64,000 nucleotides of DNA from Nannocystis pusilla. GTDB taxonomy: Bacteria > Myxococcota_A > Polyangia > Nannocystales > Nannocystaceae. Below the pieces are notes generated by a model that had not been told where the DNA came from, searched no databases, and worked only from the letters and a program-made list of their open reading frames with translations. Where the stretch lies: the NCBI RefSeq assembly GCF_051105105.1, contig NZ_CP185339.1. One strand, written 5' to 3'. Numbering within the stretch: position 1 is the stretch's first letter; every line of letters begins with the position of its first letter. This document shows positions 6,111 to 59,169 of the stretch, in pieces. The translations under genes and the position numbers were made by a program.

Positions 6111-7746
6111 ATGGTCGCGGTGGTGCTCGCCAACCTCGACGCGATCGACTGGAAGTCCCTGCGCCACGCCTACGGAGAGGCGAGCGACGTGCCGAAGCTG
6201 ATCCGCGCGCTCGTCAGCGATCACCCCGGCAAGCGGGAGGGCGCGCTCGACGCGTTGTTCTCGACGATCTGGCACCAGGGCACGGTCTACTCGGCGAGCC
6301 CCGCCGCGGTGCCGTTCCTGGTCGAGCTGCTCGACGCCGAGGCGCAGGAGGATCTGCCGGCGATCCTCGAGCTGCTGGCGCACCTCGCCACCGGCACGCC
6401 CGACGAGGACGCCGAGGCGCCGCACAACGCCGCCACCGCCGCGCGCGAGGCCGTGTCGCGCGGGATCTCCGTCTACGCGCGCCGCCTCGGCCACCCCGAG
6501 CCGGCGGTCCGCGTGGCCGCGGCGTACTTGCTCGGGCTGTTCGCGGTCGAGGCGGCCCGCGCCCCGCTCGCCGCGGCCGTCGAGGACGACTCCGAGCCGG
6601 CGGTCCGCGCCGTGGCAGCGTTCGCGCTCGGCTGCATCGCCGACCCGGCCCGCGCCGACGAGCTGCGCGAGCGGCTGGTCGACATCAGCGAGCACCCCGC
6701 GGTGCGCCTCTACGCCGGCCTCGGCCTGTCGCGCGGCGGCGCGCCCGTGGAAGGCCCGCAGTTCGCCGCGCTCGCCGAATTGGTCGAGGACGTTCGACCT
6801 GTTCGGCCAGCTCGACGAGCTCCACGACAACGCCGCGCGCATGAGCTACGGCCCGCTCGCTGACGGCCTCGTGCGCCTACCCGCGGCGGCGCGCCTGCGC
6901 CTGGCCCCCGCGCTCGGGCGCGCCCTCGAGGCGGTCCGCGGCCGCGACGCGCTCGGCCTGGCCACCGCGCTGCTCGGGCTCGCCTTCGCCGACGCCAGCG
7001 TGCTCGCGGGGGCCGGCCCGGAGGTCCTCGGCGAGGTCCAGCGCCAGGTGCTGGTGAGCCTCGTGCGCGCCCCGGCGGCCTGGCGCTACGCCAACATCGG
7101 CACCGCGCTGGCCGACATCGGCCTCGCGCCGGCGCTGACCCAGCGCGCCCCGCTGGCCGAGTGGCTCGGCGTCGACGCCAGCGAGCTGGCCGAGGACGAC
7201 GAAGACGACGACGGCGACGAATCCGGCGACGGCGACGAGGACGACGAGGACGCCGGCGTCGACGTCGAGGCGCCCGAGCCCGACCTCGGCGAGCTCGACC
7301 GGATCGGCCGCTTCGTCGCCTGTCTCGACGGCCAGGACTGGCGCGAGGCCCGGCAATGGTTCGCGTTTTATCAGCAGATGCGCGGAGTCGCCCGCGTCGA
7401 GCCGCCGGCGATCGGCCGTTACTTCGGCGCCCACGCCAACCTCGAGGCCGGCTACTGGCTGTACGACCGCGAGCTGTCGCGCTCCCTCGGCACCTGCGTC
7501 CCGCTCGAGCACATCCGTCTGGCCGTCGGGCGCAAGGACTCCGACGACCAGGTGGCCCTGCGGATCCGCGTCGACGACGACTGCCTCGACGCCGTCCTCG
7601 CCGCGATCGTCCGCCACCAGGACCGCGTCACTCCGACCGACTTCACCGCCCTGGCGATCGACCTCATCGGCGCCGCCCCCGAGGTGCTGCTGGAGACCGG
7701 TCGGGCCCAGCGCGCCCGCCTCGGTCGCGCGGCCGGCAGCGCCTGA
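6111..7746 (+). CDS. HEAT-repeat (PBS-lyase-like) protein with an acidic linker. There is an apparent +1 frameshift at about 6792.
   Basis: Repeated EPAVRVAAAYLLG and EPAVRAVAAFALG motifs. The frame-0 part (6111-~6795) continues in frame 1 (FDLFGQLDELHDNAARMSYGPLADGL...). A poly-D/E stretch lies at 7190-7260. Confidence 0.7.
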
Positions 7747-7789
7747 GACCCGTCGCCGATGGGGCAAGGCCCGTCGCGAGGTGGGGCAG

Positions 7790-8250
7790 TCGTGGGCGCC
7801 ATCGGCTTTGCTGGTGGAGACGGGCCGCCGGTGGCCCGTCACTTCCTTGGATGGGAGGAGGCGACCCGCCCGTGTGGCTGTCACTTCCTTTGACGAGTGG
7901 AGGCGGGCCCAGCCTGCGGGCCAACTGCGGATGGGGGGAGAGGGGTCAACCCGTCGCCCCGTGTGGCGGCCGGTCCGCGTGGCTGTGACTGGGGGGTGGG
8001 TGGCGTCGGGACGGTATGACCGTCGCCTGCCTTTATGGACGGAGAGGGGCCAGCCGGTCGACCCTTTGGTTGCGACAGCCGGATAGGTGGAGACGGCGCC
8101 GGCCCGTCGGGCCCGCCTGGCCGCGACGGCTGGATAGGTGGAGACGGGCCTGGCGGGTCGGGCCCGCGTGGCTGCGAGCCGCTGGAGCGATGGAGTCAGC
8201 CATCGGGCCGTGCGACCGCGAATTGCCGCTCCTTTCGCTCGCCTCACCAC
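7790..8250. repeat. Degenerate ~50-bp tandem or direct repeats in a ~1-kb non-coding region.
   Basis: Recurrent ggataggtggagacggGccNggc...gggcccgcNtggcYgcga and ccgtgtggctgtcacttcc units. Confidence 0.6.
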
Positions 8251-8317
8251 CTTCCGCGAGCGCCGGGGGCCTGCGAGGGTGGACCGCGGCGAGGGTTCCT
8301 CCGGGGGTGCTCCCCCG

Positions 8318-8626
8318 CATGTCTCCGGGGACATATGGTGACAGTCGCGGCGGGGCGGCAATCTTCGGATGTCTCTCGGAACATGTGTCCTTTTCGCCAC
8401 GAAATATTTTCCTCCCCCTCGCGCGCCAGCCGCCGGCGGACTGCACGCCGTGGAGGTCTCGGCGGGTCCGGCGGTTCGGCCGCCGGGCCCCACGAGCGCG
8501 GACGGGTACCGCGAATCATCGCATGTCTCGAGGGACATCCGACCACCCAGGCCGCCGGCTGCGGCGGTCCGCGCGCGGCGAGCTCGGCGGTCCGCCGCAT
8601 TGGCATGTCTCGAGGGACATCCCATA
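8318..8626. repeat. Four copies of the palindromic GCATGTCTC..GGGACAT element, upstream of the large lipoprotein gene.
   Basis: gcatgtctccggggacat, ggatgtctctcggaacatgtgtcc, and gcatgtctcgagggacatcc twice. Confidence 0.7.
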
Positions 8627-8775
8627 GAAGTGTTCCTGCGTTCGAGTCGCACGTGCGGGTGTGCAGCGGCCTGGTGGAGAGACCTTGCAGGTCCGCAAGC
8701 CCGACCGCGGCTGCAGAGTGTGCACGGCGCGGCGCACTATCGCCGGAGACGCGTCGCGCATAGAGTCCGGCTCCC

Positions 8776-57054: not shown

Positions 57055-57342
57055 ATGTACTTCGTGCTCCGCTACGAACTCGTCGACGATTACCTCGAAC
57101 GCCGTACGCCGCTGCGGCCCGAACACCTGGCGCTGGCCCGCGCGGCCGTCGAGCGCGGCGAGCTGCGGCTCGGCGGCGCGCTGGCCGAGCCGGCCGACGA
57201 AGCCCTGCTGGTGTTTCGCGGCCCCGACCCGTCCGCCGCCGAGGCGTTCGCGCGAGCCGACCCTTATGTCCGTGAAGGGCTGGTCCGCCGCTGGACCGTG
57301 AGGCCCTGGACGGTGGTGATCGGGGCCGACTTCGCGGGCTGA
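57055..57342 (+). CDS. YciI family protein.
   Basis: MYFVLRYELVDDYLERRTPLRPEHLALARAAVERGELRLGGAL. Confidence 0.7.
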   Translation: MYFVLRYELVDDYLERRTPLRPEHLALARAAVERGELRLGGALAEPADEALLVFRGPDPSAAEAFARADPYVREGLVRRWTVRPWTVVIGADFAG

Positions 57343-57710
57343 GGCGCGGCGCGAGAGACTGCGCCAGGCGTCGGGGCGTCGACTTCGCCCGTTCGTAGCA
57401 GCGACTCGGCCCCGCGCTGCTGCGCGCCGATGCCCGTGCGTTGCGGTGCTCCGAGCAGTAGCGACATCGCGGCGGCCCTGCCGGCCGTCGTCGCTCGCGG
57501 AGCTGCTCCGGGGCGGGGCCTTTCGGGTGAGTCGCGGTGAGGTGGCCGGGCCGGGGTGGCCCGGTACCTGTCCCCGCGGACAGGTACTCGACCTGTCGTG
57601 ACGGCCGGCGCCTGTCGAAGCGGCCTGGGTCCGCGTCGTTCGGCGAACGGGGGTCGTGCGGCCCGCTTCGCGGCGATCTGCGGGGCTCCGAGAGACGATG
57701 GCTGTGCGGC

Positions 57711-57895
57711 TCGAAGAGGGTGAGGGCGGCGCGCTTCGAGCGGGCGGTCGCGGCCGTCCGCGCTGCGACTGCGACTCGAAGAGGGTGAGGGCGGCGCGCT
57801 TCGAGCGGGCGGTCGCGGCCGTCCGCGCTGCGACTGCGACTCGAAGAGGGTGAGGGCGGCGCGCTTCGAGCGGCGGTCGCGGCCGTTCGCGCTGC
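57711..57895. repeat. 65-bp tandem repeat with 2 perfect copies and 1 partial copy.
   Basis: tcgaagagggtgagggcggcgcgcttcgagcgggcggtcgcggccgtccgcgctgcgactgcgac, three times. Confidence 0.9.
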
Positions 57896-58026
57896 TCCGA
57901 GGAGCAGCCGCGGTGAGCGGATGTCCTTTCGGGCATGTCCATACCGTGCCGCTCACGGGCGCTGCACGTTTCTGCAGCGCGTGAGCGGCGGGCCTTCCCG
58001 GGCGGCGGTCGGTCGGCGCTTGACAA

Positions 58027-58061
58027 GCGTGCTTTCCATCGTGGAAAGAGTACGTGTCATG
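58027..58061 (+). promoter_or_regulatory. Putative promoter (TTGACA) with a perfect 7-bp-arm operator palindrome CTTTCCA-tcg-TGGAAAG, immediately upstream of the XRE-family regulator gene.
   Basis: cgcTTGACAagcgtgCTTTCCAtcgTGGAAAGagtacgtgtcATG. Confidence 0.4.
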
Positions 58062-59169
58062 TCCGAAAGCGAGCCGAACCGGGTGCGGGCGGTGCGAGAG
58101 GCCCGCGGGCTGTCGCAGGGCGAGCTGGCGGCGGCGGCGAGCCTGTCGCGGCAGAGCGTGGGGGCGATCGAGGCCGGGCGGGCGACCCCCGCGGTCGACG
58201 TGGCGCTGCGGCTGGCGCGGGCGCTGGATTGCCGCGTCGAGGAGCTGTTCGCGCTCGCGGACGCGGAGGTTCGCGTCGAGGCCGAGCCGGCCGGGCCGGT
58301 GCAGGCGGGGCGGGTCGCGCTGGCCCACCTCGGCGGGCGCTGGGTGACGTATCCGCTGGCGGGCGAGGCGATGCGGCTGGCGGCCGACGCGATCGTGGCG
58401 GAGGCGCCGAAGCGACGCGGGCGGGTCCAGGTCGAGCTGGTGCGGCCGCGGGCCGAGGCGCAGGACAACCTGATCGTGATGGGCTGCGCGACGGCGCTGG
58501 GGGTGCTGGCCGATCGCCTGAGCGGGCGCGCGGGGGCGGGGCGGGTGATGTGGCTGCCGCGCTCGAGCACGCAGGCACTGGCGGCGTTGGCGGCCGAGCA
58601 CACGCACGTGGCGGGGGTGCATCTGACCGACGGGCGCACCGGCGAGGCCAACGTGCCCGACGTTCCGCAAGCACGCGGCCGCGGCGCTCGTGCTGATCAC
58701 GCTCGCGCGGTGGGAGGCGGGGCTGCTGCTGGCGCCCGGCAATCCGCGGAAGATCCGCGGCGCGGCCGACCTCGGGCGCCGCGGGCTCCGGCTGGTCGCG
58801 CGCGAGACCGGCTCGGGCTCGCGGCGGCTGCTCGAGCGCGAGCTGGTGCGCGCGGGCCTGTCGGCGGCGCTGGCCGGGGCGGCGCCGGTGCGGGCGAGCG
58901 GTCACCTCGAGGTGGCGCAGGCGATCGCCAGCGGGGCAGGCGAGGTCGGCGTGGCCACGCGCGACGCCGCGATCGCGTTCGGCCTCGAGTTCGTGCCGCT
59001 GGCGGAGGAGCGCTACGACCTGGCGATCCCGCGGGCCCTGCTGGCCGACCCGCGGCTGGAGCGGTTCCTCGACGCGATGACCTCGGCGGCGTTCCGCCGC
59101 GAGCTGTCGTCGCTCGGCTACGACGTGCGCGGCTGCGGCGACCGCGTGGCGGAGCTCGACGCCGCCTGA
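58059..59169 (+). CDS. XRE-family HTH transcriptional regulator fused to a periplasmic-binding-protein-like (ModE/PBP-type) domain. There is a frameshift at about 58662.
   Basis: GLSQGELAAAASLSRQSVGAIEAGRATPAVDVALRLARAL (HTH_XRE); the frame-0 part (to ...EANVPD) continues in frame 1 (FRKHAAAALVLITLARWEAGLLLAPGNPRKIRGAADL...). Confidence 0.7.

Follow-up and report, generated by a model that had tools for sequence, protein, structure and literature searches.

In Klebsiella pneumoniae sequenced by Nanopore R10.4.1, methylation-linked ambiguity in the base calls affects R and Y of the motif RACG/CGTY. These ambiguities are strain-specific, and only some of them turn into assembly errors (Lohde et al., 2024; PMC11610573). 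For R10.4.1, Liu and colleagues (2024; PMC11610603) described the modification-induced errors as strand-specific, with C>T and G>A predominating. In both studies the methylation-induced errors are substitutions, not insertions (PMC11610573; PMC11610603).

The stretch of DNA analysed here (the window) comprises 64,000 nucleotides of a Nannocystis pusilla assembly of ~12.2 Mb, deposited with a 12,213,092-bp contig. It was compared with the Nannocystis genomes RBIL2, Na p29 (JAPNKE01), JBMEQO01, N. exedens, N. punicea, N. radixulma and N. bainbridge. A sequence-only reading of the window had pointed out six frame breaks at ACGTTC, or GAACGT on the other strand, and these are present: the reading frame moves +1 at all six coordinates, a codon-usage HMM changes frame there, and deletion of one base at each restores a continuous, plausible protein. 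Two further breaks in the same context, in a PEGA-domain gene and a NusA_N/SUKH gene, had been overlooked and bring the total to eight; also overlooked were two breaks away from the motif and parallel GACGTC to GACGTT substitutions. The claim of a shared context stands for the six noted and the two overlooked breaks, but not for those at 20290-20296 and 423-429. The one-base insertions are as follows, with the inserted base in brackets.

6789..6795, + strand: GACGT[T]C at the codon pair GAC GTC (Asp-Val) in the gene of a HEAT-repeat protein (Pfam HEAT_2); HMM frame change 6789/6790; JBMEQO01 has cgaggacg-tcgacctg.
19273..19279, - strand: GACGT[T]C on +, hence G[A]ACGTC on the coding strand; PEGA-domain membrane protein gene broken (Pfam PEGA); frame change near 19282; GTCGACG-TCG in Na p29, JBMEQO01 and N. 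exedens.
20453..20459, - strand: G[A]ACGTC on +, hence GACGT[T]C on the coding strand; Ser/Thr kinase-TPR gene broken (Pfam Pkinase + TPR); HMM frame change 20456/20457; CTCGA-CGTCGGA in five relatives.
23637..23643, + strand: AACGT[T]C, T inserted in paralogue 1 of a tandem set of three (Pfam gives DUF4215 only, not the 'FReD' label used earlier); HMM frame change 23637/23638; CCGACGT-CGAG in RBIL2, Na p29 and N. exedens, so that a G1>A difference accompanies the extra T.
34283..34289, + strand: G[A]ACGTC, NusA_N/SUKH-like gene broken; frame change 34280/34281; compared with protein homologues only, without syntenic DNA, which align across the junction without a gap (LPPL[D/E][V/I]LAAG).
36554..36560, + strand: GACGT[T]C, Ser/Thr protein kinase gene broken; HMM frame change 36554/36555; ATCGACGT-CGAG in RBIL2, Na p29 and N. 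punicea, GACCTC in others.
39796..39802, + strand: G[A]ACGTC, GMC oxidoreductase gene broken (Pfam GMC_oxred_N, GMC_oxred_C); HMM frame change 39795/39796; TCGGA-CGTCGTG or equivalent in six relatives.
58659..58665, + strand: GACGT[T]C, XRE-HTH/PBP_like regulator gene broken; HMM frame change 58659/58660; gcccgacg-tccgcaag in Na p29.
20290..20296, - strand: GAG[G]CTC, extra base in the palindrome GAGCTC, outside the ACGTTC context; CCGAG-CTCGG in four relatives.
423..429, + strand: CTCGA[A]G, probable extra A outside the motif, breaking a C-terminal toxin-like domain; frame change near 424.

In the kinase-TPR gene, the insertion in GAGCTC puts the final 20 codons out of frame. The broken toxin-like domain lies upstream of an Imm72/Imm71 immunity gene, and the corresponding sequence of JBMEQO01 (gtcgctgg-agaagccg) lies within a single uninterrupted 462-aa gene, although this comparison involves one relative only, whose assembly is itself error-prone. 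The NusA_N/SUKH-like gene appears in the deposited annotation only as a 196-aa C-terminal fragment (P0249). Once repaired, the regulator is 97% identical to its N. pusilla Na p29 counterpart over 100% of its length.

Chance clustering had been called implausible, and the figures agree: of the ~10 insertions that are specific to the window and break a frame, eight lie in a single 7-mer context (binomial p = 4e-22). The 8-mer RACGTTCS is not over-represented in the window (12 seen vs 11.0 +/- 3.1 expected), and 8 of its 12 occurrences are located on frame breaks. Each affected gene carries one lesion, and no further window-specific one-base indel was found within confidently coding sequence in the parts of the window aligned to relatives. 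The coding strand carries T at five of the eight insertions and A at three.

At seven of the eight sites, all available Nannocystis relatives have one T fewer than the window, their sequence being GACGTC or a one-substitution variant of it (GACCTC, GACATC, GATGTC). The alignments thus show the parent to be the palindrome GACGTC, mostly as the codon pair GAC GTC (Asp-Val), and the inserted base to be T (A on the other strand). Natural GACGTTC sites of the relatives align to the window without a gap, which makes the artefact private to the window's assembly; two such in-frame sites, at 25653 and 59358, are read straight through in both window and relatives. The Na p29 and JBMEQO01 assemblies have dozens of deletions of their own.

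Substitutions are concentrated in GACGTC as well. Thirteen GACGTC sites of the relatives read GACGTT or AACGTC in the window, the direction of change depending on a single relative at nine of them:

18324..18329, + strand: GACGTT (C6>T), Ser to Leu; C in two relatives.
30232..30237, + strand: GACGTT, outside confidently coding sequence; C in Na p29 and RBIL2.
30713..30718, + strand: GACGTT, Ser to Leu in an MVP-like gene; GACGTC in six relatives.
39300..39305, + strand: GACGTT, synonymous Val; GACGTC in six relatives.
52805..52810, - strand: GACGTT on +, Asp to Asn on the coding strand; Na p29 only.
53761..53766, - strand: GACGTT on +, Asp to Asn; Na p29 only.
53908..53913, - strand: GACGTT on +, Asp to Asn; Na p29 only.
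56892..56897, + strand: GACGTT, non-coding by codon HMM; Na p29 only.
61407..61412, + strand: GACGTT, Ser to Leu; Na p29 only.
62107..62112, + strand: GACGTT, Ser to Leu; Na p29 only.
62294..62299, + strand: GACGTT, synonymous Val; Na p29 only.
62765..62770, + strand: GACGTT, synonymous Val; Na p29 only.
10309..10314, + strand: AACGTC (G1>A), Asp to Asn; JBMEQO01 only.

An amino acid is altered by 8 of the 11 coding substitutions, compared with 36% of background window-specific substitutions (p = 0.024). On the + strand, twelve sites read GACGTT and one AACGTC (p = 0.003).

Both kinds of change depend on the hexamer. Among 53 loci with GACGTC in a close relative, the window is intact at 26, has one extra base at 7 and an outer G>A or C>T at 11; across 777 loci of control palindromic hexamers, the corresponding changes number 5 and 26 (Fisher p = 1.8e-6 for the extra base and p = 6e-6 for outer transitions), and xxCGTC controls are clean. 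The ACTTCG and ACTTCC sites earlier offered as intact controls are irrelevant, since the true parent is GACGTC; the proper controls are the 34 intact GACGTC sites, themselves fewer than the 48.8 +/- 6.7 expected in the window. No flanking rule distinguishes hit from intact GACGTC sites. These comparisons show that the extra T is motif-specific, absent from relatives, and independent of gene orientation and of selection.

Very probably, the frame breaks are artefacts of the long-read consensus, produced where GACGTC is modified, and the deposited assembly does not record gene loss here. The evidence thereby favours the leading idea of the sequence-only reading, that sequencing or base calling errs systematically at one k-mer, possibly a methylated motif containing ACGT. 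The living genome would carry ordinary GACGTC hexamers at the affected sites and, to judge from the error pattern alone, these would be chemically modified in this N. pusilla strain. With native-DNA long reads, the base caller may then fail on the outer base, the Y of CGTY, which is the R of RACG on the other strand. The consensus would be correct at about half of the sites, would show a transition (GACGTT or AACGTC) at others, and would elsewhere give 'TC' for 'C', producing GACGT[T]C and a one-base insertion that splits the gene. We infer base modification as the cause and Nanopore R10-type reads as the data behind the assembly. Counting against an artefact is the strand asymmetry of the substitutions, 12 to 1, which a palindromic target would not predict. 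The lack of a flanking rule, the dependence of nine substitutions on one relative, the lack of a methyltransferase or restriction gene in the window and the restriction of the published errors to substitutions also weigh against it. Methylated cytosines are genuine mutational hot spots for C>T, and some of the GACGTC substitutions could be real mutations. In practical terms, the finding marks many false pseudogenes; its biological interest is low.

A PacBio kinetic origin is unlikely. N6-methyladenine at G-A*-CGTC would slow the opposing T, and an extra dTTP pulse would leave a second T in the consensus. The extra base is indeed the T facing A2 on the opposite strand, and G/C homopolymer errors are very few in the window, as in HiFi-grade data. 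Related Nannocystis genomes come from one large project on these and other myxobacteria, which used PacBio Sequel II (CLR or HiFi) with Flye, hifiasm or IPA (PMC13445942). However, the 13 outer C>T/G>A substitutions and the G1>A at 23637 would be left unexplained, no published report of such a consensus error was found, and neither Na p29 nor RBIL2, relatives with PacBio-style assemblies, has such insertions. Nanopore is favoured over PacBio because a single cause then covers both transitions and insertions.

Real motif-targeted lesions are very unlikely. An AatII-like system would cut its own GACGTC (GACGT^C), error-prone end joining would add a T, deamination of the methylated outer cytosine would give GACGTT, and many GACGTC sites would be scarred genome-wide. 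The extra T lies exactly at the AatII cleavage position, and the CTCGA[A]G insertion also lies at an XhoI-type cleavage position on the other strand, but GAG[G]CTC is away from the SacI-type position. The hot spot for C>T at methylated cytosines speaks for real lesions, and the strand asymmetry is easier to reconcile with a replication-linked process than with a symmetric reading error, although background window-specific C>T and G>A changes are symmetric (42 vs 32). Eight knock-outs in 64 kb, each the sole lesion of a conserved gene, extrapolate to ~1,500 genome-wide, which is hard to square with a viable free-living bacterium. In addition, the non-synonymous substitutions affect positions whose conservation extends to as many as six species, which implies that no selection acted on them.

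Programmed recoding, in which one base at GTTC would be passed over, by ribosomes or by RNA polymerase, to yield full-length proteins, had been judged unlikely and is exceedingly improbable. A short sequence common to all breaks does resemble a recoding signal, but the mRNA carries its reverse complement (GAACGTC) at three of the eight sites, so that there is no single RNA-level signal; nor is it conserved, the extra base being absent from orthologues in seven other Nannocystis genomes, and the two in-frame GACGTTC sites are read without a shift.

The earlier proposal of an extra G in (G/A)ACTTC, with Asp/Asn-Phe restored, likewise reopens the frame, but has next to no chance of being right and is refuted by orthologous DNA (up to six Nannocystis genomes), which is GACGTC and not GACTTC at 7/7 sites with relatives and shows the extra base to be T (or A), and by the regulator homologues, in which the junction is Asp-Val (D-V-R, as NVPDVR, in 116/120; Phe in 0/120); the supposed paralogue match LTNFELCTGF also fails, as the in-window DUF4215 paralogues 2 and 3 read LTNVQLC and LTDTELC, with V and T and not F.

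Among known systems, programmed +1 ribosomal frameshifting of the prfB type shares with the window a +1 shift and a short sequence that recurs where the shift occurs, but the window sites are not conserved in orthologues, occur in both mRNA orientations and have no slippery codon or stop-codon context. Long-read homopolymer errors likewise give one-base indels and false split genes, as seen in Na p29 and JBMEQO01. Those of the relatives remove bases from G/C runs of at least four, in scattered contexts, whereas the window insertions turn T into TT in one hexamer and the window's G/C runs are clean. GACGTC is the AatII-type recognition sequence (GACGT^C), an identical hexamer and a 6-bp palindrome typical of Type II targets; unlike in an AatII-type system, the 64-kb window contains no methyltransferase or restriction gene, and the putative modification is deduced from the error pattern. 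Closest are the RACG/CGTY errors of R10.4.1. There, as here, the affected bases lie directly 5' of ACG and 3' of CGT, at the outer positions of GACGTC, with G<->A and C<->T changes that are strain-specific and confined to a fraction of sites. The window differs in requiring the full palindromic hexamer, and in that about one-third of its errors, presumably of Nanopore origin, are frameshifting one-base insertions.

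Six frame breaks had been noted in this window, which has a G+C content of 72%, and the frame does break at each of them: at ACGTTC or its reverse complement GAACGT it moves by +1, and removal of one base gives a continuous protein. With frame changes placed by a codon-usage HMM trained on the long ORFs of the window, the same-strand changes comprised these six points and two more of like kind. A window-scanning codon-likelihood detector lacked the sensitivity for a full list of breaks, and the HMM and alignment to relatives were used instead. The breaks, with the Pfam identities of the genes concerned, are as follows.

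Frame-breaking insertions in the window
6792, HEAT gene
19273-19279 (site 19276), minus strand, PEGA-domain gene, placed by the HMM
20456, kinase-TPR gene
23640, first of three DUF4215 paralogues
34283-34289 (site 34286), NusA_N/SUKH-like gene, placed by the HMM
36557, kinase gene
39799, GMC oxidoreductase gene
58662, regulator gene (XRE-HTH and PBP_like)
20290-20296, outside the motif, GAGCTC changed to GAG[G]CTC, puts the final 20 codons of the kinase-TPR gene out of frame
423-429, outside the motif, CTCGA[A]G, window-specific insertion by alignment to relatives

The parents of the two insertions outside the motif are likewise 6-bp palindromes or nearly so. In the aligned parts of the window, no further window-specific one-base indels were seen in confidently coding sequence. 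Of about ten frame-breaking insertions, eight occupy the same position within a single hexamer (binomial p = 4e-22). In-frame stops at 44598, 59169, 60174 and 63445 proved to be ordinary gene boundaries, and a window-specific one-base deletion at 42575, considered as an eleventh frameshift, lies upstream of the start codon of a radical-SAM gene.

There are 28 copies of ACGTTC/GAACGT in the window. A purine precedes ACGTTC at all eight frame-break copies (G in seven, A in one), and the intact copies are mostly C-ACG-TTC, a Thr-Phe codon pair. The 8-mer RACGTTCS was found 12 times against 11.0 expected in shuffled sequence and is not over-represented. Thus, the anomaly lies in the coincidence of the motif with frame breaks and not in its abundance. 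GACGTTC also occurs at 45931-45937 and 53338-53344, in apparently non-coding DNA outside the cover of the fetched relatives.

Deletion of the G or of one T restores the frame equally well, and the sequence alone leaves this choice undecided. Orthologous DNA from Na p29, RBIL2, N. exedens DSM 71, N. radixulma, N. punicea, N. bainbridge and JBMEQO01 is syntenic with the window and 90-97% identical to it. Every relative has one base fewer at 6792, 19276, 20456, 23640, 36557, 39799 and 58662, where the relatives read GACGTC, or else GACCTC, GACATC or GATGTC; the parent sequence is the 6-bp palindrome GACGTC at all seven of these checkable sites. The window sequence is thus GACGT[T]C, a single T having become TT, with GAC GTC as the true codons. 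For the site at 34286, which lacks a syntenic relative, protein homologues cross the junction ungapped as LPPL[D/E][V/I]L.

The repaired regulator has full-length homologues, the best being from N. pusilla (97% identity over 100% of the length), and its junction is Asp-Val-Arg in 116 of 120 homologues, with Phe in none. The sequence-only reading had proposed an inserted G whose removal restores Asp/Asn-Phe; this is refuted by the missing T in the relatives and by the absence of Phe from the 120 regulator homologues. Nor is a junction Phe shared with the DUF4215 paralogues, since paralogue 2 reads LTNVQLC and paralogue 3 LTDTELC. These three tandem paralogues (22711-26415) encode a secreted cysteine-rich protein, and the earlier 'FReD' (fibrinogen-related) label was not reproduced, Pfam giving only DUF4215 for paralogue 1.

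Changes at GACGTC are not confined to insertions. At thirteen sites the relatives have GACGTC and the window has GACGTT (12 sites) or AACGTC (one site), nine of the thirteen being polarised by one relative only; at 30713 and 39300, six of six relatives agree against the window. Both kinds of change were compared with those at nine control palindromic hexamers.

Fate of GACGTC and of control hexamers in the window
GACGTC in a close relative: n = 53; intact, 26; +1 in the window, 7; outer G>A or C>T, 11; other change, 9
Nine control palindromic hexamers: n = 777; +1 in the window, 5; outer G>A or C>T, 26

The excess at GACGTC over the control hexamers is significant for the insertions (Fisher, p = 1.8e-6) and for the outer transitions (p = 6e-6). 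The shorter ACGTC or CGTC was rejected as the target, because a G stands upstream at seven of the eight insertion sites and the non-palindromic xxCGTC controls are clean. GACGTC is depleted in the window, with 34 copies against 48.8 +/- 6.7 in shuffles, and the count rises to that expected once the roughly 21 altered sites are included. A search for flanking sequence that would tell altered GACGTC sites from intact ones gave no rule.

The substitutions are strand-asymmetric on the + strand, with 12 GACGTT against one AACGTC (p = 0.003) at sites spread across 18324-62770, whereas the insertions divide 5 against 3 and background window-specific C>T and G>A changes number 42 and 32. A palindromic target predicts symmetry, and the 12:1 ratio therefore does not fit it. 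Our guess is that a strand-asymmetric polishing step produced this asymmetry; some of the C>T changes could also be genuine products of deamination.

Several features bear on whether these changes belong to the organism or to its deposited sequence. No relative has the extra base, and the natural in-frame GACGTTC of relatives aligns to the window ungapped; the phenomenon is thus confined to this assembly. Eight of 11 coding GACGTC substitutions are non-synonymous (Ser>Leu in four, Asp>Asn in four), compared with 36% of background window-specific substitutions (p = 0.024); this amino-acid-changing excess indicates that selection has not filtered them. Each gene broken at the motif carries one lesion there, downstream of which the frame stays open to the normal stop and keeps coding codon usage. 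The frame breaks are far from chance, yet they are very probably a property of the deposited assembly and not of the organism, and the genes are almost certainly intact. The suggestion of a k-mer-specific error at a possibly methylated motif containing ACGT is supported by these GACGTC-specific, assembly-private insertions and transitions.

In this strain GACGTC probably carries a modification, and as a short palindrome it is a plausible methyltransferase target. No methyltransferase or restriction gene was found within the 64-kb window; we infer the modification, its cognate enzyme and the sequencing platform. If GACGTC were modified, the base caller would waver at the outer position, calling C or T, and the consensus there could come out as C, T or TC. 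A possible, minor variant of this proposal assumes PacBio sequencing, in which an extra T pulse would arise opposite N6-methyladenine at A2. Such a pulse would account for an added T, but it leaves the substitutions unexplained.

An alternative to base-calling error is real mutation targeted to the motif, in which the strain mutates its own GACGTC sites and both the added T's and the C>T changes belong to the organism. One route would be AatII-like self-restriction followed by T-adding end joining, together with deamination of the methylated outer cytosine. We regard this alternative as very improbable. If true, it would mean hundreds to thousands of site-specific scars, with inactivated genes, in a viable free-living bacterium. 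Genuine pseudogenes were rejected because further decay is absent downstream of the breaks and the repaired regulator keeps its high full-length identity to a homologue. Programmed +1 ribosomal frameshifting is contradicted by orthologues in seven genomes, which lack the extra base, so that the shift site is not conserved; moreover, the coding strand carries the insertion with T at five sites and as the reverse complement, with A, at the other three, and this unfixed orientation excludes any RNA-level recoding signal. Homopolymer-run indel error fails because the change, from a single T to TT, does not lie in a homopolymer of at least four bases.

Other features of the window were recorded alongside. 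A 4.7-kb segment (30448-35168) lies between 30-nt inverted repeats (30448-30477 and 35139-35168, 97% complementary) and contains a 906-aa Major-Vault-Protein-like gene (Pfam MVP_shoulder and Vault_3) and the NusA_N/SUKH gene. Six of six other Nannocystis genomes have the MVP part in inverted orientation with respect to its flanks and lack 33668-35138 at this place; the arrangement may be a genuine inversion with an insertion, or may stem from misassembly. Two tRNA-like sequences score above the Rfam gathering score for tRNA, one at 33444-33510 on the plus strand (51 bits, G+C 0.48, anticodon loop CUGUCAC) and one at 25136-25208 on the minus strand (46 bits, G+C 0.42, anticodon loop UUGAAGA), the latter with three non-standard acceptor-stem pairs; across the whole window, ARAGORN gave no tRNA call. 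Within 1-1751, the coding sequence for the C-terminal portion of a toxin-like protein, which bears the frame break at 427, stands before a gene with matches to the immunity families Imm72 and Imm71; the two look like a polymorphic toxin-immunity pair. A DUF4041 and T5orf172/MUG113 gene (27152-28939) sits in a stretch of lower G+C (0.68-0.69) that is only partly common to relatives. Among the relatives, the assemblies of Na p29 (L001 and L013; JAPNKE01) and JBMEQO01 (L019) have dozens of private one-base deletions, most of them in G/C runs, as judged relative to both the window and RBIL2; two L001 genes (5661-6305 and 6272-7762), for example, match a single 699-aa ORF of the window (53701-55800).

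These changes are of no importance for biology, and their importance is for data quality. Extrapolated to 12.2 Mb, eight insertions and 13 substitutions per 64 kb would amount to some 1,500 false frameshifts and some 2,500 false substitutions in a publicly available 'complete' genome; both figures come from this extrapolation and not from measurement. In databases the effect is split or missing proteins, such as the 196-aa fragment (P0249) that the deposited annotation carries for the gene broken at 34286. Errors of the insertion type are relevant to polishing tools and to pseudogene counts in long-read-only assemblies.

The closest known system is Nanopore R10.4.1 sequencing of K. pneumoniae, in which methylation-linked 'ambiguous positions' were reported in the reverse-complementary RACG and CGTY, the uncertain bases being R and Y; they are strain-specific, and only a fraction ends up in the assembly (PMC11610573). 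The R and Y positions are exactly the outer bases of GACGTC here, and from this agreement we infer a modification-linked base-calling error. Modification-induced errors of R10.4.1 are strand-specific and consist mainly of C>T and G>A changes (PMC11610603). The 13 substitutions of the window match this signature; insertions such as the eight here are not among the errors in these two reports, which describe substitutions (PMC11610573; PMC11610603). The pattern suggests that modification-linked errors can appear as one-base insertions, beyond the transitions so far described.
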